Virus record (IMG/VR): IMGVR_UViG_3300031772_000002
Span: 64,001 to 128,000 of that record
Length of the DNA stretch: 64,000 nt
From: a virus
Strand: one strand, 5' to 3'
Positions 9,791 to 23,372 of this stretch are shown here, piece by piece. The notes under the pieces are model-generated. The model had not been told where the DNA came from, ran no database searches, and worked only from the letters and a program-made list of their open reading frames with translations. A program made the translations under genes and the position numbers. Position 1 is the first letter of the stretch. The number at the start of each line of letters is the position of its first letter.

Positions 9791-10017
9791 AATGCCATAT
9801 CAATAATATTAATTGAATATGGCATTTTTTCTTGAGCCAAGCCCTGAGACTCAAGAATTAAAAAAAAGATATATATGAGAGTAGCCATAGGAGTATGGAT
9901 GGCTTACTCTCACAATATATCAATATTAGGTACTCCTCACAAGTACCTAAAATGAATTTTGCTATATAAAATGTAGGATATAATTTTTGGACCATGCCAA
10001 TAAAATTATACCCTACA
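9791..10017. other. array of five consecutive hairpins (structured non-coding interval)
   Basis: Hairpins 9791-9826, 9829-9857, 9868-9921, 9926-9950, 9972-10017. Confidence 0.7.
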
Positions 10018-10021
10018 ACTG

Positions 10022-10351
10022 TTACGCAGCCTTTTCCTTCTTTTCCCTCAGCAAAGGAGCCACATGTTTCGCCAGTTCAGCGTACTGATCATTTAGCAGC
10101 TTATGCGAGTCGTCTACTGCTTTTTTTTCCAAATTTCTTTCTGCAATGTCCTCTTTTTCTACTGCGATTTTAAACTTCGCGATGGCTTTTGGGACATCGC
10201 TTCCTGCCTTATCAACAATATCTTTCAAGAATTTTTGTAAATTCTCTTCGTCAATAAGTGGTTTTGCAAAATTTTTACCAACTGCAACCCCTGCCATAAA
10301 TCCAACCGTTCCTGCTCCGACACCAACTGCAACATGCGTTAAGATACTCAT
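10022..10351 (-). CDS. small membrane-anchored protein
   Basis: Gly-rich N-terminal TM helix, charged helical body; AGGAG RBS; promoter motif upstream. Confidence 0.75.
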   Translation of the reverse strand: MSILTHVAVGVGAGTVGFMAGVAVGKNFAKPLIDEENLQKFLKDIVDKAGSDVPKAIAKFKIAVEKEDIAERNLEKKAVDDSHKLLNDQYAELAKHVAPLLREKKEKAA

Positions 10352-14774: not shown

Positions 14775-17528
14775 ATGGCTAGTAAAAAAGGTTATAATTA
14801 TCAATTTAGATTATACATGGAAGGTGTTCATATTCCTTTTCATGGAGCAGTTATTTCATGCACTCCAAATGGGGTAGAAGCTAATATTAATTTGTGGGCA
14901 AATAAAGAATTGTTAGATCTTAAGCCCAAAACAGCAGTTCAAATTATTTATCGTGAATGGCACAAAAAACCTTCAGAAGCAAAGTGGCTTATAGCTTTTG
15001 ATGGATTTTTATCAAGTTTTTATAAAGTAGATCAGGCGGGTGAAGGTAATAATATATCATTAGTATGTCGTGATTTCAGAATGGATATACGTAGAGCTCC
15101 TGCAGCAATAGCATGGGAAGCTGACGATCCACTTACCCCTAAAACTTTTTATAATGAGATGGGATTGTTTCAAACATTTGTTATTAAGGGGGTTACAAAA
15201 TCAGGACAACCAGGAACGGATATACGTATTTATGATAGTGGAGATCTGGCGCCATTAAGTTACACTCTTAGTTTAATTGCAGGAAGCGCTTTTGGAGGAT
15301 CGTATGCAACTAAACATAATACCCATGTAAAAGGAGAATCGACATATCAAAAACAATTTACCGATGTTACCCCAACAATTCAACAACCGGCAACTAAAAC
15401 GGAAACTAAAAAAGATACTTCTGATGGTGTTGCTAATTGTGGATTTTTTTTAGATGCTATTGTTCGTGGATTATGGGTTGAAGCTGTCGGAGGAACATCT
15501 GTTGGTTCGTTTTTAAATAAACGAATCCGTCTTGATAAAAGATTTTTAATACCTGTCAATGTATCTGGTTATAACTTCTGGAAACGTCAATCTGCGGCAG
15601 TTAATATAGGATCCCATCTAATGGGCAATGCAAGATTTACAAGTCTTGAAGCGGCTATAATGAATCTTGCAGGCGTATTTTCAACGCGGGTTTATTCGTG
15701 CAATACGCCTTCATTAATTTCAATTGATAATGATAGTCCTGCTGTTGATTATATAATGGATAGAAGAGTAAGAAATTTTATTTTAGGTAAAGGATCAAAA
15801 GAGTTTGGTGGTAAATATATTCTTAATGAATCTATGTTATTGCCTCCTCTTGAATTTACCGCTCCTCCTAACTGTAATTTTATATTTCCTCCAATGTGTA
15901 ATCGTGTTGAATGGCAATATGATACTGATGTTGATATTACACGAGGGGTATATGAACAGATTAGTTTATTATCAACTCCTGGAAGTGACGGTCTTGCTGC
16001 GGCTAGAATTCAAGTTCCTAATGCTTTATTTAATATTATGAATAAAAATCCTAAAGATGAATTTAAAAGAAGAAAACCTCCTCTTACATTAGAAGAAAGG
16101 TATAAAGGTATTAATGTAGAATTTGGAAGTGTTTCAGTAGAGCTTGCATGTAATGATGCTTCTTCTATAATTCAAAAAAGATATGTAAGTGATAAGGATG
16201 GAAAAAAAATTGATTTAAAAATAGATGAATTGAAAAAATTAAAAGATAAAGTGGAAAGTGGAACATGGATTCCTAAAGATAAATCAGCAGTTGATTATAG
16301 TAAAGAAATAGAACAAAAACAAAAAGAAAAAAAAGAAATTAAATTATTAAAAAGTAAAGGTTTTGAGCCTTTAATGACCAATGCTCTTAAACATCATGCC
16401 GTATTAAAATTTCTTAATTCTAAATATGCAGGTAGAGTTGTTGTTGTTGATATGGCTTTTAATCCTTTTATTATGAGTGGGTTTCCTGGAGTTATTGTGT
16501 CGGATAATAATGAGTATGGAAAAAATTCATCAAAAACTATTCTTGGTATGGTACAAGTAGTTCGGCATACCATATCTATATCGAGCGCGGGAGGAGACGC
16601 TAATACGTCGGTAACAATGAATAACGCTCGTTTTGAAGACGAGCCTACAGATGTCGATTTATATGGATACCCATTGTATATTAAAGAAACAAATCCTGAA
16701 GACGCTATGATTGACATTAAAACATTCAAACACATAAATAGTAAAGGAGAATATGTAAAGCATTATGTTACAGAACCTAAAACCCCTGTGGAAGATGTAA
16801 AGTTTGAAACTAAAGATATTCCTAAAAGTAAAGCTTATGATCTTATTGATAAGTCAATTAATTCTGAAGGTTATAAGTATGCTAAAGACTTACTAAGCCT
16901 TACGTTACAAGATTATTTAAGTGGAAAAGTAAATCAAATTTATATAGATGAAACATATGAACCTACTCGTATATGTAAATTTTATCAGGATGTATTTCAA
17001 CACACTGAATTGCATTTTATGATAGGGCGTACTACTATTAAAGATGACTCTGGAAAAGATAAGGAAATTTACTTTACTTATGATTCTATTCATGAAGGAT
17101 TGGAAAAATTACGAATAAACAGACCTGATTTACTTTCAGACTATTCTGCATGCATGAGTTTTACCGAAAGAAATATTTGTTCAGCAGATGCATTTTTTCA
17201 AGGAATTATCGGCCTTTCAATAGAATCTTCAAAAGATTACAAAGGTAATATTTTTAAAGATGCTAATGATAATATTATAACTAAATATTTTTGTAATCAA
17301 TCTGATTTTATTCATCAGGATGTATACGAAAGATATTATGGAGTGTCAACTGATGATTATAATAATAAGAATTTTAATTTAAAAAAAGAAAATGGAGGAG
17401 ATATGACTGGTCCAGGCCAATTTAGCAGTATTCGTGAAAATTCTCCTGTTACTGCTTATATTAAAGAAAGAAGAGACGCTGTTGAAATATATCTTACTGA
17501 AGTATTAAAACGAGTGAGTTCAATATGA
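14775..17528 (+). CDS. putative baseplate hub protein
   Basis: FRLYMEG N-terminus, AFDGF, LVCRD, FNPFIMSGFPG, VVRHTIS motifs; synteny. Confidence 0.5.
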   Translation: MASKKGYNYQFRLYMEGVHIPFHGAVISCTPNGVEANINLWANKELLDLKPKTAVQIIYREWHKKPSEAKWLIAFDGFLSSFYKVDQAGEGNNISLVCRDFRMDIRRAPAAIAWEADDPLTPKTFYNEMGLFQTFVIKGVTKSGQPGTDIRIYDSGDLAPLSYTLSLIAGSAFGGSYATKHNTHVKGESTYQKQFTDVTPTIQQPATKTETKKDTSDGVANCGFFLDAIVRGLWVEAVGGTSVGSFLNKRIRLDKRFLIPVNVSGYNFWKRQSAAVNIGSHLMGNARFTSLEAAIMNLAGVFSTRVYSCNTPSLISIDNDSPAVDYIMDRRVRNFILGKGSKEFGGKYILNESMLLPPLEFTAPPNCNFIFPPMCNRVEWQYDTDVDITRGVYEQISLLSTPGSDGLAAARIQVPNALFNIMNKNPKDEFKRRKPPLTLEERYKGINVEFGSVSVELACNDASSIIQKRYVSDKDGKKIDLKIDELKKLKDKVESGTWIPKDKSAVDYSKEIEQKQKEKKEIKLLKSKGFEPLMTNALKHHAVLKFLNSKYAGRVVVVDMAFNPFIMSGFPGVIVSDNNEYGKNSSKTILGMVQVVRHTISISSAGGDANTSVTMNNARFEDEPTDVDLYGYPLYIKETNPEDAMIDIKTFKHINSKGEYVKHYVTEPKTPVEDVKFETKDIPKSKAYDLIDKSINSEGYKYAKDLLSLTLQDYLSGKVNQIYIDETYEPTRICKFYQDVFQHTELHFMIGRTTIKDDSGKDKEIYFTYDSIHEGLEKLRINRPDLLSDYSACMSFTERNICSADAFFQGIIGLSIESSKDYKGNIFKDANDNIITKYFCNQSDFIHQDVYERYYGVSTDDYNNKNFNLKKENGGDMTGPGQFSSIRENSPVTAYIKERRDAVEIYLTEVLKRVSSI

Positions 17529-18247
17529 AAACAAACACTACTATTGATAAAATTTATTTTAATTCTTTTTATGATGAACTTCAAAATATTGAAAAGAATG
17601 CTGGATTTGCAAAAGCATTAGGCACTGGGGCATTAATATGGGGAGGTATAGTAGGACCAGTGGCAACTCCTCAAATTATTGCTATGAAACAAAATGCACC
17701 AATTGTACGTAGTTTTGTAAATACAATGCAATCTGGTACTGTAAATGCTAGAAATATTATTAATAAATATGATCCTGGAACTATTCCATTAACATCTAAA
17801 AGCCAACTTGATACTGCTCAAATTGATAAGGCATCGAAAGCTATTGCAGGTTCTCAAATTAATAAATCAAATAAATTTACTAATACATTTTTTGTACCAG
17901 GAATAAAAGGAAACAGATATATTGTTTCACCAGAATTAACAGACTCAGCTATTATTGGTCACGAATTAGGTCATAGCAAGCATTATCAACAACTTTCTAA
18001 AAATAAAGATTTAAAAACAGGTTTAAAATTATTTAAAAAATATCCTACAGTTAATAGAGAAATAATGGCTAATCAAATGGCTCCAATTAAATCAAGTAAT
18101 TATAATAAGATAATGAATCCAGCATTTAAAACATATAAAAATATTAATACTGCAAACAAATTTACAAAAGGTATAGCTGGATCAGAATTTAGTTTAGGTT
18201 TAATTGCTTTAGGAAAAATGTTAATTAAGCGTAGAAAATTTAAATAA
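17525..18247 (+). CDS. zincin-like metallopeptidase domain protein with ELEKIA-type leader
   Basis: IIGHELGHSKH (HExxH) plus downstream REIMAN; leader KIYFNSFYDELQNIEKNA. Confidence 0.6.
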   Translation: MKTNTTIDKIYFNSFYDELQNIEKNAGFAKALGTGALIWGGIVGPVATPQIIAMKQNAPIVRSFVNTMQSGTVNARNIINKYDPGTIPLTSKSQLDTAQIDKASKAIAGSQINKSNKFTNTFFVPGIKGNRYIVSPELTDSAIIGHELGHSKHYQQLSKNKDLKTGLKLFKKYPTVNREIMANQMAPIKSSNYNKIMNPAFKTYKNINTANKFTKGIAGSEFSLGLIALGKMLIKRRKFK

Positions 18248-18249
18248 AT

Positions 18250-18942
18250 ATGACTATTGAACAAGATCAAATAATGGAATGGCAAAAAACTAAAGATCCA
18301 AAGATCTTTACTGAATTAATTATTAAATACAGACCGGTTGTTAATAAAGTTGTAAATCAATACAGAACAGTTGGTGTATCTTCTGAAACATTAAGAACCG
18401 AAGCCACTGCGCAACTTATTAAATCATTTAAAACATATAAACCATCATATGAAACGCAACCAATAACACATATATGGAATAATTTAAAAAAAGTTCAAAG
18501 AGTTGCTTCTGTTAGTTTAATGTCAGGGCATATACCTGAAAATAGAGCGTTAAAAAAATCAACGTTTACTATTGTTAAAGATAATTTAATTGATAAACTT
18601 GGATACGAACCAAGTACTATAGAAATGGCTGACGAACTTGGATGGAGTAAAAAAGAAGTTGCTCGAATGACAAGTGAACTTGGAGGAGAGGCTTCTTATT
18701 CAAAAATGAAATATGATTACTATGGGTCTGTGGTAAATCCTGAAAATCCAGACAAAGCCCTTGCCGATTATTTATATCAAGAACTTACCGGTAAAGATAG
18801 AGTTATATTTGAACATACATTTGGATATGCCGGAAAACCTATATTAAATAATAAAGAAATTGCTGATAAATTAAATGTAAATGAAATGTGGATTCATCGT
18901 GCAAAAACAAGATTGGCAGAAAAAATAAAATCATATCGTTGA
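18250..18942 (+). CDS. phage-encoded sigma-70 family RNA polymerase sigma factor
   Basis: Region 2-like N-terminus, region 3 LGYEPSTIEMADELGWS, region 4 HTH EIADKLNVNEMWIHRAK. Confidence 0.85.
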   Translation: MTIEQDQIMEWQKTKDPKIFTELIIKYRPVVNKVVNQYRTVGVSSETLRTEATAQLIKSFKTYKPSYETQPITHIWNNLKKVQRVASVSLMSGHIPENRALKKSTFTIVKDNLIDKLGYEPSTIEMADELGWSKKEVARMTSELGGEASYSKMKYDYYGSVVNPENPDKALADYLYQELTGKDRVIFEHTFGYAGKPILNNKEIADKLNVNEMWIHRAKTRLAEKIKSYR

Positions 18943-18953
18943 AAGAATAAAAT

Positions 18954-19163
18954 ATGTTACAAGAAATTTATAATACTTCATTTATTAATGAACTTGAAAA
19001 AATTGCTGTATCACATGACATGAAGAGAATTATTTTACAAAGAAAATTAAATAGATATGTTGATGAACAGAAAAAAAATGTAAATGAACGTTTCTATAAA
19101 AAAGCAATTAGAAGATTTGTTATAAAAAGAATATTATCAGCATTGTCAAAAGTTAATTATTAG
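18954..19163 (+). CDS. small basic protein with ELEKIA leader
   Basis: MLQEIYNTSFINELEKIA followed by Arg/Lys-rich body. Confidence 0.75.
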   Translation: MLQEIYNTSFINELEKIAVSHDMKRIILQRKLNRYVDEQKKNVNERFYKKAIRRFVIKRILSALSKVNY

Positions 19164-19174
19164 GATAATTTATA

Positions 19175-20719
19175 ATGGCTAAAGAATTTGCATTAGGTCT
19201 TCCGTCAAAAACACGTTTTGATCCAATCGATCAGAAAGGTAAAACTCGTCTTGTTATTCAAGAACATGATGCAACTACCAAACATTACGATATGAGATTA
19301 AAAGATAAAGGGGTGGCTCATAGTTGGGTTATACGTTATCTTCCTGGAGAAAAGCAGAAAATTCTTGCAATACAACAACCAACACATTTGTCAAGATATA
19401 TGAATTTTGAAGGAACAATTCCTGAAGGATATGGAGCCGGAACTGTTAAAAAAATATACGATCAAAAAGTTAAAGTTCTTTCTGCTACAGATGATAAAAT
19501 TAAAATGACATTGCCTGAAGGCAATTTTACCATGATACGACCAAAAGGATTTAGTGGAAAACAATGGTTAATGATTAAAAATTCTAGTATAAAAAATCCT
19601 ATTACATCAAAACCTAAATATAAAGTTATTGCTGAACCTATTGATTATTCTGATGAAAATAAAATACTTCAGCCAAAGGTAGATGGGGCGCATAGTATTT
19701 TTGAATTAAAATCTAACGATGTAAATAATATTTACTCATATCGAATAAGTAAAAAAACTGGAAAGCCTATAGATCATACCGATCAACTTCCTCATTTAAG
19801 AGATTTAAAAATTCCTAAATCACTTGATGGAACTATATTGAGAGGTGATCTATACGGGAAAACAACAATCGGTCCATTGCCTGCCGAACAAATAAGTGGA
19901 ATTCTTAATTCAAGTGTTAATAAAAGTATTGAAAGGCAAAAACAACTCACTCGTCTTAAACCTTATATTTTTGATATTGTTAAATTTAAAGGCAAAGATG
20001 TTTCAAAAGAAGATTATTCAAATAAACTTAAAATGATGAAAGAAGTAGAATCTAAAATACCTGAAATGCGAGTTGCTGAAACTGCAACAACTCCACATGA
20101 AAAAAGAAGACTTTTTAATATGATAAAAACTCAAAGACATCCTGACACATCTGAAGGTGTAGTTGAATGGGATTTAAACGCTCCAGGAGGCTCACCAATG
20201 AAACAAAAATTCAGAGATACCCATGATGTCTATATTAAAAGTATATACCCTGCAATAGAACAGAAAAGCGGTAAAGAGAAAAAAGAAGCTGGTGGATTTG
20301 AATATAGTTTAACTCCTCGCGGTGAAATAGTTGGAAGTGTAGGAACAGGATTTACTCAAAAAAAAAGAAAAGATATGCTTGCACATCCTGAAAGTTATAT
20401 TGGAATGGTAGCACGAGTTAAATCTCCACATCAATATGAATCTGGTGCATTAAGAGCTCCGGCATTTTATACTATGGATATAGAAAAAAATTTAAATAAA
20501 GTTGCTAATATTAATAAAGGAGTTTTCATGAACAATTTATTTAATGAAAGTTTAGTTAAAGAATTTCAAAAAATAGCTATGTCTTCAAGATTCTATCAAG
20601 GCGTTTTAAAAAAAGTTAAATGGAATGATCCAAGAAGATCAACATTTGTTGGTGGATTATATAAATCTTTAGTTAAAGAAACTGGCGGATTGCCTAAAAA
20701 AGTTATTTTAAATAAATAA
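19175..20719 (+). CDS. ATP-dependent DNA ligase with N-terminal LigD-type 3'-phosphoesterase domain
   Basis: PE: VIQEHDATTKHYDMRL, SW, FEGTIPEGYGAGTV; ligase: PKVDG (motif I), YIFDI, EGVV, VGSVGTGF OB-fold. Confidence 0.85.
   Translation: MAKEFALGLPSKTRFDPIDQKGKTRLVIQEHDATTKHYDMRLKDKGVAHSWVIRYLPGEKQKILAIQQPTHLSRYMNFEGTIPEGYGAGTVKKIYDQKVKVLSATDDKIKMTLPEGNFTMIRPKGFSGKQWLMIKNSSIKNPITSKPKYKVIAEPIDYSDENKILQPKVDGAHSIFELKSNDVNNIYSYRISKKTGKPIDHTDQLPHLRDLKIPKSLDGTILRGDLYGKTTIGPLPAEQISGILNSSVNKSIERQKQLTRLKPYIFDIVKFKGKDVSKEDYSNKLKMMKEVESKIPEMRVAETATTPHEKRRLFNMIKTQRHPDTSEGVVEWDLNAPGGSPMKQKFRDTHDVYIKSIYPAIEQKSGKEKKEAGGFEYSLTPRGEIVGSVGTGFTQKKRKDMLAHPESYIGMVARVKSPHQYESGALRAPAFYTMDIEKNLNKVANINKGVFMNNLFNESLVKEFQKIAMSSRFYQGVLKKVKWNDPRRSTFVGGLYKSLVKETGGLPKKVILNK
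20528..20719 (+). CDS. possible nested in-frame small protein with ELEKIA-type leader
   Basis: Internal AAGGAG RBS then in-frame ATG: MNNLFNESLVKEFQKIAMSSRF... Confidence 0.5.
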   Translation: MNNLFNESLVKEFQKIAMSSRFYQGVLKKVKWNDPRRSTFVGGLYKSLVKETGGLPKKVILNK

Positions 20720-20725
20720 TTTATC

Positions 20726-20765
20726 ATATTATTAATTATATTTAATTAATAAACATTAGGAAGGA
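20726..20765 (+). repeat. 40-bp direct repeat (second copy 21286-21325; partial third about 21577-21595) containing RBS
   Basis: ATATTATTAATTATATTTAATTAATAAACATTAG(G/A)AAGGA, one mismatch. Confidence 0.85.
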
Positions 20766-20771
20766 GGTTGT

Positions 20772-21269
20772 ATGATGAAGATTGGCCAGGCATTAAAATT
20801 AGCAATGAGTAATACACAATATCTTGAAAAAATAGCTATGATTATGATTCCATTGACACAAGGACAGATTCGGGCTCCCTGGTTTAAAATAGATGATGAA
20901 ACCAGACAGAAGCTTGTAGATAGGGCAAAACCAATGCCGGTTAGACACAGTTTGATTGGTGGGGCTGTTGGTGTGGCTACCGGAGCTACGATTGGATCTC
21001 GGCTTGGTTGGCGTGGAGCCTTAATTGGTGGTACTAGTCTTGGATTGTTAGGCGGGGCTTTAGGATATGCAGGCGGCAAGCATCAGCAGGGTTTTGCATC
21101 AAAGTCGAAATATTATTCTCCATATCAAAGAACGCCCATAGGCGTTGGATTTGCGTCAAGCAAAGAATCTGTAAACAGGGCCGCTGCCAAATTGATTGAA
21201 AATATCAAAAGAAACGATTTAAAAGGATTTTCAGGAATTAGTTTTTCCAAGCAGATTAGCGACGAATAA
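20772..21269 (+). CDS. glycine-zipper protein with LEKIA motif
   Basis: QYLEKIAM; GGAVGVATGATIG...GGTSLGLLGGALG; visibly higher GC than neighbours. Confidence 0.75.
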   Translation: MMKIGQALKLAMSNTQYLEKIAMIMIPLTQGQIRAPWFKIDDETRQKLVDRAKPMPVRHSLIGGAVGVATGATIGSRLGWRGALIGGTSLGLLGGALGYAGGKHQQGFASKSKYYSPYQRTPIGVGFASSKESVNRAAAKLIENIKRNDLKGFSGISFSKQISDE

Positions 21270-21332
21270 TTTTTAGTGATTAATTATATTATTAATTATA
21301 TTTAATTAATAAACATTAGAAAGGATCTTATT

Positions 21333-21567
21333 ATGTTTCAAAAAATTTATAAAGATTCATTTAAAAATGAACTTGAAAAAATTGCTTTATCAACAGAAGG
21401 GGTTGAGGATAACCTTAGTACTGTATTAACCCCAGAACAACTAAATCAAACTGAAAAATTGGGGGTTAATACAGTACTGCTGCTGAAAAAAATCCATTTG
21501 GACCTTGTACGGCGGCATCCCTTGGATCTACAGCTTTATTAGCAGCTTCTATATTAGGTAGAAAATA
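21333..21567 (+). pseudogene. internally deleted, frameshifted duplicate of 21603..22016
   Basis: Shares 5' about 120 nt and 3' about 85 nt with downstream gene, middle missing; ORF stops at 21542. Confidence 0.7.
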
Positions 21568-21602
21568 AAATTTAAATAATAAACATTAGAAAGGATATCA
21601 TT

Positions 21603-22016
21603 ATGTTTCAAAAAATTTATGAAGATGCATTTAAAGATGAACTTGAAAAAATTGCTTTATCAACAGAAGGAGTTGAAGATAGACTTGGTGCTATATTAAC
21701 TCCAGAACAATTAATTCAAGCTGAAGAATTGATTGCAAGGGCTAAAGAAAAAAGTTTTATTTTAAGACATCCATGGCTTACTGGATTTGGAACTTTAGGC
21801 ATTGCTCCTGCAATTGCTAATGAAAACGCATATAATAAAATTAGTAGAACAATGATTAGAACAAATCCCGATATCAAAGAAATACAAAAAAACATAGTAG
21901 CCAAAGAGCATGAATTAGATCTTGCTGCTGAAAAAAATCCATTTGGACCTCGCACTGCGGCATCCCTTGGATCTACAGCTTTATTAGCAGCTTCTATTCT
22001 AGGCAATAGAAGATAA
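21603..22016 (+). CDS. ELEKIA-leader protein
   Basis: MFQKIYEDAFKDELEKIA; AAAGGA RBS. Confidence 0.8.
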   Translation: MFQKIYEDAFKDELEKIALSTEGVEDRLGAILTPEQLIQAEELIARAKEKSFILRHPWLTGFGTLGIAPAIANENAYNKISRTMIRTNPDIKEIQKNIVAKEHELDLAAEKNPFGPRTAASLGSTALLAASILGNRR

Positions 22017-22046
22017 AATTTAAATAAGGTAAGCAATAGGTATGTT

Positions 22047-22934
22047 ATGAATAAAAAAGCTTATAATATTGATCTTAAAGTAGGAGATGTGGTTCTTGGA
22101 GGTAAATTTAAGAATCAACGAATGATTGTTGAAAAATTTGGAACTAACGATATAGGACAGCCAACAATAAATGATAAAAGTTTGTTGGCTGTTCGTATTG
22201 AAAAAACTTTACCTAATAGTAAAAAAAGTTCTGAAACTTTAGCACAAGAATTAAATAATATAGCAGGAAATGAATCTGAAGTAAATAAAACTGCTTTTAT
22301 GAAATTTCCTAACTTTAAAAAATCTTTTCAAACTTTATATGGTTTAGGTCCTGAAGGATTTTCACGAAAAGCAATTGAATATGGAAAAACATTAGGAGAT
22401 ACACTAAATCAAAAAATTATTAAAAAAATAAAACCTGAAGCACATGCAAATTTAATAGAAGCTTTAAAAGGAATGAAAAATCCTGAGCTTGTTAAAATGT
22501 ATAAAGAGAATAAAATTTCACCTGATTTATTACGTAACTATTTAAATAAAAAAAGCATTGAATCTTCTGTATCAACATTTAAAGAATCAATTCCTGCATT
22601 GGCTATATCATTACCTGTTGGAGTTGGATCAATTTATGGTGGGAAAAAATTATTGGATAAATATCGTAAACAAAATCCTAAAATGGAAAAAATTTCATCA
22701 AATATTTTGTTTAAACCAAGTTTATGGAATGAATCTATTAAAAAAATACTTAAATCTACAGCAACAAATACTACATTAAATACTGAATCAACTTTAGATT
22801 TAGATAAATACTATAATAAAAATAAAAAACAAAATTTTAAAATTACAAAAACTTCGTCATTAAATTTAAATAATATTTATCGTAATTCATTATATGATGA
22901 ATTGACAAAAATGTCAAAATTAGGTAGAAAATAA
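22047..22934 (+). CDS. modular protein with multiple K-x-A/S motifs
   Basis: N-terminal LKVGDVVLGGKFKN...GQPTIN module; NKKA, NKTA, EKIS, TKTS and C-terminal IYRNSLYDELTKMS. Confidence 0.75.
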   Translation: MNKKAYNIDLKVGDVVLGGKFKNQRMIVEKFGTNDIGQPTINDKSLLAVRIEKTLPNSKKSSETLAQELNNIAGNESEVNKTAFMKFPNFKKSFQTLYGLGPEGFSRKAIEYGKTLGDTLNQKIIKKIKPEAHANLIEALKGMKNPELVKMYKENKISPDLLRNYLNKKSIESSVSTFKESIPALAISLPVGVGSIYGGKKLLDKYRKQNPKMEKISSNILFKPSLWNESIKKILKSTATNTTLNTESTLDLDKYYNKNKKQNFKITKTSSLNLNNIYRNSLYDELTKMSKLGRK

Positions 22935-22956
22935 AATTTAAAGAAAGGATGTTATT

Positions 22957-23372
22957 ATGTTTCAAAAAATTTATAAAGATGCATTTAAAGATGAGCTTGA
23001 AAAAATTGCTTTGTCAACTATTGGAGATATTAGTAGATCAATATTTGGTTATCATAATCTTAATGAAATATCTAAAAAAATTAATATTCCTAAAAAAATG
23101 TAGAATCTTATTATCATGGTTTACGCACTCCTAATAAATTATTATATTCCAATGAAGATGTAGAAAAAGATATTAAAGATATATGGCAAAAAAAAGAAAA
23201 ATATGATAAAATACGCAATGAGTCAGGATTATTTAATACTCAGCCTGGAAGCGATGAAGAATATAAAGTTATGAAAATGTATGGAAAGCAAATGGATAAT
23301 GATTTATCAGATTATGAGAATACTAAACAAAATTTATTAAAAAAATATGTAAATATTAAAAGTAAAAAGTAA
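22957..23372 (+). pseudogene. ELEKIA-leader gene interrupted by a frameshift in an A7 run
   Basis: MFQKIYKDAFKDELEKIA... stops at 23103; one extra A in 23092-23098 restores an open frame to TAA at 23370-23372. Confidence 0.65.

Follow-up and report, generated by a model that had tools for sequence, protein, structure and literature searches.

The 64,000-nucleotide (nt) stretch of viral DNA considered here, called the window throughout, comprises bases 64001-128000 of one 164,446-bp contig with a guanine-plus-cytosine (GC) content of 28% (IMG/VR record IMGVR_UViG_3300031772_000002); positions prefixed w are window coordinates and positions prefixed genome refer to the whole contig, which encodes a large terminase, a baseplate wedge gene and tail fibres. 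Between a hub-like gene (w14775) and baseplate genes (w23407-28949) lies an island of genes whose products, mostly unrelated to one another, share a leader peptide that ends in a hydrophobic-x-Lys-x-Ala motif (Table 1). A preliminary description of the window had read this leader as a portable packaging tag with a Lys-x-Ala cleavage site, by which effectors would be loaded into the phage head for co-injection. What we observed is the motif itself, where it occurs, how well it is conserved and that it is tied to head genes and to a single protease family; the explanation that we consider best, and on balance probable, is that the leader is a capsid-targeting propeptide resembling that of T4 but cut by a protease of new specificity.

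The nearest cultured relatives by protein comparison are the Vibrio phages D69, D148 and D181 and the Salmonella phage Arash (PMC10585845; records OQ632216, OZ195729), and a protease, a capsid protein, an SNF2 helicase, a sigma factor and a multisubunit-type RNA polymerase are common to these phages. A DNA similarity search of the island against 50,697 cultured phage records gave no matches. In IMG/VR, at least 33 loci, complete genomes of 175-208 kb among them, encode a capsid protein 70-100% identical to the one described here. These relatives were recovered with capsid protein and sigma factor queries, and scans with the protease and the hub-like protein returned none, owing to the peptide patterns used.

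A conserved leader on unrelated proteins

A 17-column profile of the leader, searched against six-frame translations of the whole genome, returned 11 full copies with independent expectation (E) values of 3e-8 to 1e-3; the next best match in the 164,446 bp has E > 2, and the leader is thus not an effect of composition. Seven of the full copies lie in the window, five at N-termini (w17525, w18954, w21333, w21603 and w22957), one inside a DNA ligase and one at the C-terminus of w22047, and a further copy at nt 20823, consisting of Y-L-E-K-I-A only, is a partial profile match. The eight motif copies listed in the preliminary description are all present, in frame and where it placed them. That description went too far in confining the tag to a 6-kb island, because four more full copies lie outside the window. 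Three of these (genome 29398, 29692 and 29946) are N-terminal in small open reading frames (ORFs) that begin at genome 29383, 29680 and 29931 and all abut the head-protease gene, and the fourth (genome 20410) is on the minus strand, within a protein of 345 amino acids (aa) at genome 19622-20659. Shortened leaders are seen in w20772 and in the head-module proteins at genome 25954, 28235 and 28485; the SNF2 helicase (genome 23502) has one at each end, and the capsid protein has one at its N-terminus.

Within this genome the leader copies have the consensus I-Y-x-x-S-F-x-D-E-L-E-K-I-A, which across the clade reduces to the core [A/S]-F-x-D-E-L-E-K-I-A, and every leader terminates in hydrophobic-x-K-x-A/S. 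Similarity essentially stops after K-I-A, as had been noticed at the outset: pairs that are not paralogous average 48% identity across the 15-residue leader and 6.2% across the 30 residues behind it. At the DNA level, the copies at w21318, w21588 and w22942 belong to 77-nt repeats that include a ribosome-binding site (RBS) and are 94% identical, and the more divergent leader copies share only 71-75% of their DNA. Each internal or C-terminal leader, in the ligase, in w22047, in the genome 19622 protein and at the helicase C-terminus, has a second site about 20 residues upstream, and with sites paired in this way the leader could be excised as a peptide.

A short motif concentrated in head proteins

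For counting, the end of the leader was written as [LIMF]-x-K-x-[AS], and expectations were taken from within-protein shuffles. The tripeptide K-I-A alone is only mildly enriched genome-wide (31 versus 20.9 expected), so that the five-residue motif is the informative unit. Head-core genes (genome 25.9-33.8 kb) hold 37 sites versus 9.2 expected and the leader island holds 17 versus 6.4; tail and baseplate genes show no enrichment (4 versus 5.2 and 16 versus 20.7), and a sugar/methyl transferase block within the head region has 2 sites versus 3.9. The richest proteins are the scaffold-like protein of 301 aa (7 versus 0.6), those of 279 aa (8 versus 1.1) and 167 aa (4 versus 0.7), and the protease (7 versus 1.9).

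Orthologue alignments at 35-55% identity show the sites fixed in place with P4 and P2 free to vary, most of them being kept in 13-18 of 13-18 sequences; the 301-aa scaffold-like protein retains five of its seven sites in 15-16 of 16 sequences, and the 167-aa protein its four in 16-18 of 18. Taken over scaffold, protease and capsid-protein orthologues, which are 35-80% identical, individual sites are likewise maintained. Across 244 site contexts, P5 is L, I, M, V or F, P4 is often E, P3 is K and P2 is aliphatic or small; P1 is A (84%), S (13%) or G (3%), and P1' is S (34%) or A (23%). Head-module proteins of D69 are similarly enriched (10 versus 1.8, 9 versus 1.2 and 5 versus 0.7); the capsid protein of D69 has a site following residue 28, and five tail-region proteins of that phage contain no motif sites at all. 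Arash head proteins, judged by eye, have a similar pattern. Homologous proteases and capsid proteins, together with this head-restricted enrichment, link the present phage with Arash and D69, and the pattern is as expected if the motif is the recognition site of a head protease.

The capsid protein carries the short form of the tag: residues 14-19 read F-[L/M]-[E/D]-K-[I/V/L]-[A/S/G] in all 27 relatives read. Capsid, scaffold and protease have the short site only, and the long leader is found only on non-structural bodies, which suggests that its extra 10-12 conserved residues do more than guide a cut. Most simply, as we would argue from this distribution, those residues would dock to a component of the prohead.

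The head-maturation protease and capsid protein

The putative head-maturation protease is assigned by its PHROG match (Table 1) and by a match to the annotated prohead protease of Rhodococcus phage E3, and it is 30-34% identical to homologues in the Arash/D69 group; a phmmer search of PDB sequences gave no match. Structural modelling of its first 266 residues yielded a low-confidence model (predicted local distance difference test, pLDDT, 55) whose best match is T4 gp21 (5jbl_A; Z 6.4, root-mean-square deviation 3.5 A, 130/165 residues); the next unrelated row in the same low-confidence comparison has Z 3.1, and the proteases of varicella-zoster virus (VZV) and human cytomegalovirus (HCMV) have Z 2.9 and 2.8. 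His109 and Ser160 are invariant in 11 orthologues and are candidate catalytic residues for an assemblin-like fold. Directly after the catalytic domain stands the site L-G-K-A-A|S, kept in 11 of 11. The capsid model (pLDDT 52) matches many HK97-fold capsid proteins and an encapsulin weakly (Z 4-4.9), which is consistent with the capsid assignment and is not proof of it. PHROGs recognised neither the capsid protein nor the scaffold, sheath-like and hub-like genes.

In several relatives the protease gene has a different structure: some 370 additional aa are inserted between positions ~163 and ~159-207 of the present protein, or the gene is split at that place (L017:4749 and L037:4190, 1005-1006 aa; L035:4946 and 6279; G001, G003 and G004), giving open frames of 708-1341 aa. 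The insertion looks like an intein or homing element.

Helicase, polymerase and the Arash virion

Alignment of the SNF2 helicase with Arash gp217 is restricted to aa 107-563 (34% identity, E 3e-85). Cuts are predicted after residues 43, 101, 568 and 578, and those after aa 101 and aa 568/578 bracket the body that can be aligned with Arash and would remove both extensions absent from gp217. The virion proteome of Arash, in which 116 proteins are listed, includes gp217 with 1148 spectra and, though not stringent, supports the association of helicase, sigma factor and polymerase with the particle; the paper, examined for evidence of cleavage, contains none (PMC10585845).

The polymerase of the present phage appears as an ORF of 2641 aa (genome 2332-10257), a fused multisubunit-type RNA polymerase that corresponds to two genes in D69 (1527 aa and 609 aa); Arash gp216 (606 aa) is likewise matched by the C-terminal part of the ORF. 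A 531-aa transposase (phrog_506, E 1.4e-37; genome 12051-13646) is encoded between this region and a reverse-transcriptase operon.

Spread of the leader among related phages

Besides the copies and the capsid and scaffold sites already given, the leader itself occurs in relatives, on ORFs adjoining protease genes and around sigma factor genes. In one relative (L042) 13 leader copies fall within 14 kb, including one at the N-terminus of an SNF2 helicase. The complete genome of that relative (G006) contains the exact sequence D-E-L-x-K-I 11 times, always on the same strand, between 16 and 30 kb and in varied codons, and the reversed-pattern control gave none. A tblastn search placed homologues of w21603 in the head modules of relatives, one immediately before the protease gene (L008:4949) and another behind the capsid gene (L007:12163).

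The exact core F-x-D-E-L-E-K-I-A is present in at least 117 IMG/VR stretches, many of the carriers being high-GC contigs of 100-200 kb, and in 46 of the 76 instances read the context is N-terminal-like, with a Met 3-12 residues ahead of the core and a stop codon shortly upstream of that Met. Cellular genomes (596 Gb) served as a control and gave at least 120 core matches, which suggests about 15-20 chance matches among the 117 viral stretches; among the matches listed, the context was N-terminal-like in 9 of the 83 that were read. The comparison of 46/76 with 9/83 indicates that the peptide can arise by chance and that the N-terminal leader context is viral. All five of the large leader-bearing contigs tested encode the same protease family, at about 40% identity. 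Among cultured phages, tblastn of a 26-aa leader against the 50,697 records found no match at E <= 10. A separate short frame, F-[F/V]-D-E-L-E-K-I-A-V-D-K-D-I-L-S, is shared by 11 Nostoc/Nostocales contigs (L178, L182, L183, L187, L195, L198, L208, L242, L245, L251 and L252), and seems to be a conserved repetitive element or the remnant of a gene, with no relation to the context of the leader in phages.

Genes of the leader island

The genes are listed in Table 1. The stop codon of the 917-aa hub-like gene (window 14775-17528) overlaps the start of w17525 in the sequence A-T-G-A, an overlap suggesting that translation of the island is coupled to that of the baseplate operon. The hub-like protein and Arash gp8, which is a structural protein and a cell wall hydrolase, have similar N-termini. 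The body of w17525 is basic (isoelectric point, pI, 10.3), with Gly-rich hydrophobic segments and the string H-E-L-G-H. On that string alone depended its earlier label of HExxH peptidase, which is unproven, as is the label of membrane-active peptide used for island cargo: w17525 belongs to no Pfam or PHROG family, and Atlas gave weak metallopeptidase leads only.

Table 1. Features of the leader island and of the protease and capsid genes (window coordinates unless marked genome)
Feature	Position	Strand	Leader	Matches and remarks
240-aa ORF	17525..18247	+	aa 8-24 (nt 17546-17596)	predicted cut after I-E-K-N-A (aa 26)
sigma-factor-like gene	18250..18942	+		phrog_351 E 6.6e-8, Sigma70_r3; 26% identical to Arash gp10
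69-aa ORF	18954..19163	+	N-terminal, nt 18960-19010	followed by 51-aa very basic peptide, pI 10.8
514-aa LigD-type 3'-phosphoesterase + ATP-dependent ligase	19175..20719	+	internal, aa 453-469 (nt 20531-20581)	Pfam LigD_N 1.2e-14, DNA_ligase_A_M; 46-aa basic tail behind leader
47-nt intergenic module (AT-rich box + RBS)	20719..20765	+		repeat families D4, D6, D7
165-aa Gly-zipper protein	20772..21269	+	shortened, Y-L-E-K-I-A	predicted cut after aa 22; weak PHROG matches to Gly-rich families
69-aa ORF	21333..21542	+	starts nt 21339	decayed copy of w21603 with an internal deletion and a frame-shifted 3' part (direct repeats D1, D3, D5)
137-aa ORF	21603..22016	+	N-terminal, nt 21609-21659	
295-aa basic protein	22047..22934	+	C-terminal, nt 22869-22919	
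48-aa ORF	22957..23103	+	nt 22963-23013	third copy of 77-nt RBS-plus-leader module
614-aa head-maturation protease	genome 30323-32167			phrog_18299 E 1.5e-9
341-aa capsid protein	genome 39856			27% identical, E 3e-29, to Arash gp226, annotated major capsid protein

The ligase ORF illustrates the internal form of the leader, with predicted sites after aa 444 (L-N-K-V-A) and aa 468 (F-Q-K-I-A). An A-A-A-G-G-A-G ribosome-binding site stands 7 nt ahead of an in-frame ATG at nt 20529, and to judge from these signals the tagged ligase tail may also be translated separately. The leader of the ligase, internal or C-terminal, is a conserved feature and not the product of an accidental fusion: in relative L042, phosphoesterase and ligase are separate ORFs, each followed by a leader and a short tail, and similarity continues through the leader. 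Since this layout of domain, leader and tail is kept, the arrangement in the present ligase is not an accident of a lost stop codon. The 295-aa protein w22047 has six motif sites versus 1.4 expected, of which those flanking the leader are predicted after aa 270 (I-T-K-T-S) and aa 290 (L-T-K-M-S). Antisense to this C-terminal leader (window 22889-22917, minus strand) lies a perfect sigma-70 consensus (T-T-G-A-C-A, 17 nt, T-A-T-A-A-T; 12/12), which may be due to chance in AT-rich DNA; a promoter and terminator scan of the island did no better than shuffles.

The 47-nt module upstream of w20772 recurs at w21279-21325 and w21549-21595, ahead of leader genes. The relationship of w21333 to w21603, already recognised as a duplicate pair, is that of an internally deleted and frame-shifted copy to its source. 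Distant homologues of the sigma factor (27-28% identity; L045 and L046, nt ~9960-10040) start with a 13-residue peptide ending in L-A-K-A-A, a feature from which it appears that sigma may be trimmed by the protease in those phages, unlike in the present one.

The predicted mature bodies are strongly basic: 10 of 11 have a pI of at least 9.6, versus 18-20% of all genes, and many of the tagged bodies contain Gly-zipper-like hydrophobic segments. The recognisable tagged enzymes are the LigD-type phosphoesterase-ligase and the helicases, and Pfam and PHROGs searches of the tagged proteins gave almost nothing besides ligase, helicase and Gly-zipper families and DUF5661.

Comparison with known systems

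Internal proteins IPI-III and Alt of phage T4 bear a capsid targeting sequence that is removed by the prohead protease gp21 (PMC9026906, PMC9958956). As in T4, a short N-terminal peptide is found here on unrelated, mostly basic proteins, it ends in a cutting motif that also marks capsid and core proteins, the tagged genes adjoin the protease gene, and the protease has a gp21-like fold in the low-confidence model; the basic bodies likewise recall the basic internal proteins of T4. The tag differs in having about 14-17 conserved residues rather than about 10, in a sequence unrelated to that of T4, and in ending with hydrophobic-x-Lys-x-Ala/Ser rather than Leu/Ile-x-Glu, so that the system is not a T4 member by sequence or specificity. 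It also occurs internally or terminally with two flanking sites, its cargo includes a ligase and a helicase, and it is known from sequence alone.

In the giant phages SPN3US (gp245), phiKZ and 201phi2-1, head proteolysis takes place after A-x-E (PMC10052503, PMC5694885). There too, many head and ejection proteins have propeptides cut by one prohead protease, scaffold-like propeptides are cut repeatedly and the protease cuts itself on its C-terminal side, but the motif is another one and the substrates have no single conserved leader. Herpesvirus assemblin cleaves at the consensus (V/L/I)-x-Ala|Ser. The modelled fold of the present protease would place it in the same class, and the two agree in a small P1 Ala and a P1' Ser. 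An invariant site right after the protease domain resembles a release site, and the long C-terminal extension with further sites that follows it resembles a fused scaffold; assemblin has both release and maturation sites (PMC4498786). The differences are that Lys at P3 and a hydrophobic P5 are required here, and that the substrates include tagged non-structural cargo. By analogy, the function appears closest to T4 capsid targeting with gp21 and to phiKZ-like propeptide systems (PMC10052503), and the specificity closer to that of herpesvirus assemblin.

The Arash/D69 group shares with the present phage a homologous protease, capsid protein, helicase, fused or split polymerase and sigma factor, as well as the Lys-x-Ala enrichment in head modules and the hub-sigma-baseplate gene order, and differs in having neither the long D-E-L-x-K-x-A leader nor an island of leader genes. 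Encapsulin cargo-loading peptides offer an analogy only, in that a short conserved peptide sends unrelated cargo into an HK97-fold shell; those tags are usually C-terminal and uncleaved, the shells are free of DNA, and there is no sequence similarity. An encapsulin-type system was rejected, as the tags here are mostly N-terminal and end in a protease motif, in a tailed phage with terminase and tail genes.

Interpretation and alternatives

The explanation favoured here is that the leader is a removable address tag. Tagged proteins would be taken into the assembling prohead along with scaffold and core proteins, where a head-maturation protease of the gp21/herpesvirus type would cut after the Ala or Ser of hydrophobic-x-Lys-x-Ala; the same protease would trim the major capsid protein, fragment the scaffold and cut itself at the motif. 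N-terminal leaders would be removed, and internal or C-terminal ones excised by means of the second site that lies some 20 residues ahead of them. The proteins freed in this way, most of them small and very basic, together with the phosphoesterase-ligase and, in the head module and in relatives, the SNF2 helicase, would remain with the DNA and pass into the host on infection. Confidence in the successive steps declines along this series. That cleavage occurs at the motif is quite likely, and processing of the tagged proteins inside the prohead is rather likely; on whether the leader itself is the targeting signal the balance is even, and delivery of the tagged proteins into the host falls somewhat below that.

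Several lines speak for the packaging tag of the preliminary description, namely the sites at the capsid N-terminus and in scaffold and protease, enrichment in head genes only, co-occurrence with a gp21-like protease, the helicase boundaries and the tagged genes abutting the protease gene, although cleavage, presence in the virion and co-injection are all inferred. A number of observations weigh against it. The island had been placed within the late structural cluster, and structural genes do flank it, but they are baseplate genes and the island is not in the head cluster. Its sigma factor has neither a leader nor an N-terminal K-x-A site, and the polymerase shows no site enrichment (6 versus 8.0 expected) though virion-associated in Arash, which together mean that the tag is not the sole route into the particle. 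Arash and D69 lack the long leader, and the Arash proteome, with implausible coverage values and no cleavage analysis, is weak evidence of packaging (PMC10585845). Cellular instances of the core lie mostly inside ordinary proteins, and a peptide of nine residues can arise by chance. Both structure models are of low confidence, and Foldseek returned nothing significant for that of the protease (pLDDT 55). The idea that the leader forms an amphipathic helix was abandoned, its hydrophobic moment being equal to that of shuffled sequences. Finally, a head protease does not explain a protein of 225 aa (genome 130882-131559; L170:2882-3559) that has 8 motif sites versus 0.9 expected and whose gene immediately precedes that of a tail assembly chaperone homologue (phrog_1158).

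Other accounts of the leader differ in which of its parts they take to matter. It could be a propeptide only, an extended substrate or an inhibitory pro-segment that keeps membrane- or DNA-active proteins inert, and then it would contain no address and the bodies or other partners would bring about entry into the head. Gly-zipper and hydrophobic bodies might need such masking, the short cleavage motif is the sole part shared with bona fide head proteins, and polymerase and sigma factor apparently reach Arash virions untagged. We nevertheless regard this as unlikely, because phages that differ widely in GC content keep at least 12 residues ahead of the cut, a length that exceeds the known needs of gp21-type or herpesvirus proteases; the long form is found solely on proteins without a structural role; and a prohead protease normally acts inside the prohead, so that its substrates must arrive first. 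Less probable again is that the motif is not a cleavage site and serves as a helix-capping or protein-contact motif of scaffold-type proteins, with the leader a docking helix retained on the mature proteins. Fixed P5, P3 and P1, free P4 and P2 and small P1 and P1' form the pattern of an extended substrate strand, and P1 Ala with P1' Ser agrees with herpesvirus assemblin sites; moreover, the sites fall at the capsid N-terminus, the end of the protease domain and the boundaries of the helicase body, and internal leaders have paired sites. Against these points can be set the helical, Lys/Glu-rich character of the motif-bearing proteins and the scaffold-like proteins of Arash that are still detected in particles (PMC10585845).

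The location of the island, between the hub-like and baseplate genes and at a locus that in Arash holds the sigma gene, raises the question of whether the tag addresses another destination, either the lumen of the tail tube or baseplate or the complex of phage polymerase and sigma factor. This too is improbable, to a similar degree, given that further tagged genes abut the protease gene, that homologues of w21603 are in the head modules of relatives, and that the tag ends in a head-assembly motif which the tail genes lack. It is most improbable of all that the shared sequence is a DNA recombination module, made up of promoter box, ribosome-binding site and first codons, for duplicating or swapping small genes, with the peptide itself having no role. 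The three 94%-identical 77-nt copies of RBS and leader, the repeated 47-nt upstream box and the decayed duplicate would all fit such a module, but different codons encode the conserved peptide, both within one genome and from one genome to another, high-GC phages included, the leader is also internal and C-terminal, away from start signals, and divergent copies share just 71-75% of their DNA.

Implications

To our knowledge, T4 is the only phage whose capsid-targeting tags have been described in detail, and only T4-like and phiKZ-like phages are known to have head cargo trimmed by a protease. The tag of the present phage is distinguished from these by being longer and far better conserved, by its occurrence at either protein end or internally, and by its tie to a hydrophobic-x-Lys-x-Ala|Ser specificity; a literature search, including a full-text search for the leader string, found no description of the leader or of the Lys-x-Ala rule. 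Tentatively, and with somewhat less than even confidence, a broader proposal can be made for a large, almost wholly uncultured clade of 130-210-kb phages, in which [A/S]-F-x-D-E-L-E-K-I-A would be a universal, transferable capsid ticket, read by a conserved receptor in the prohead and removed by a head protease with herpesvirus-like Ala|Ser specificity. The cargo, comprising ligase, helicase, basic DNA-binding peptides and membrane-active proteins, would be freely exchangeable and delivered with the genome, and new cargo would be recruited by recombination at the leader. If the leader does act as a removable address tag, it would provide a sequence rule that predicts the particle-borne proteins of hundreds of uncultured large phages, it would suggest that DNA-end repair enzymes and a helicase are delivered along with the genome, and it would offer a compact tag with which foreign proteins could be loaded into the capsids of phages.

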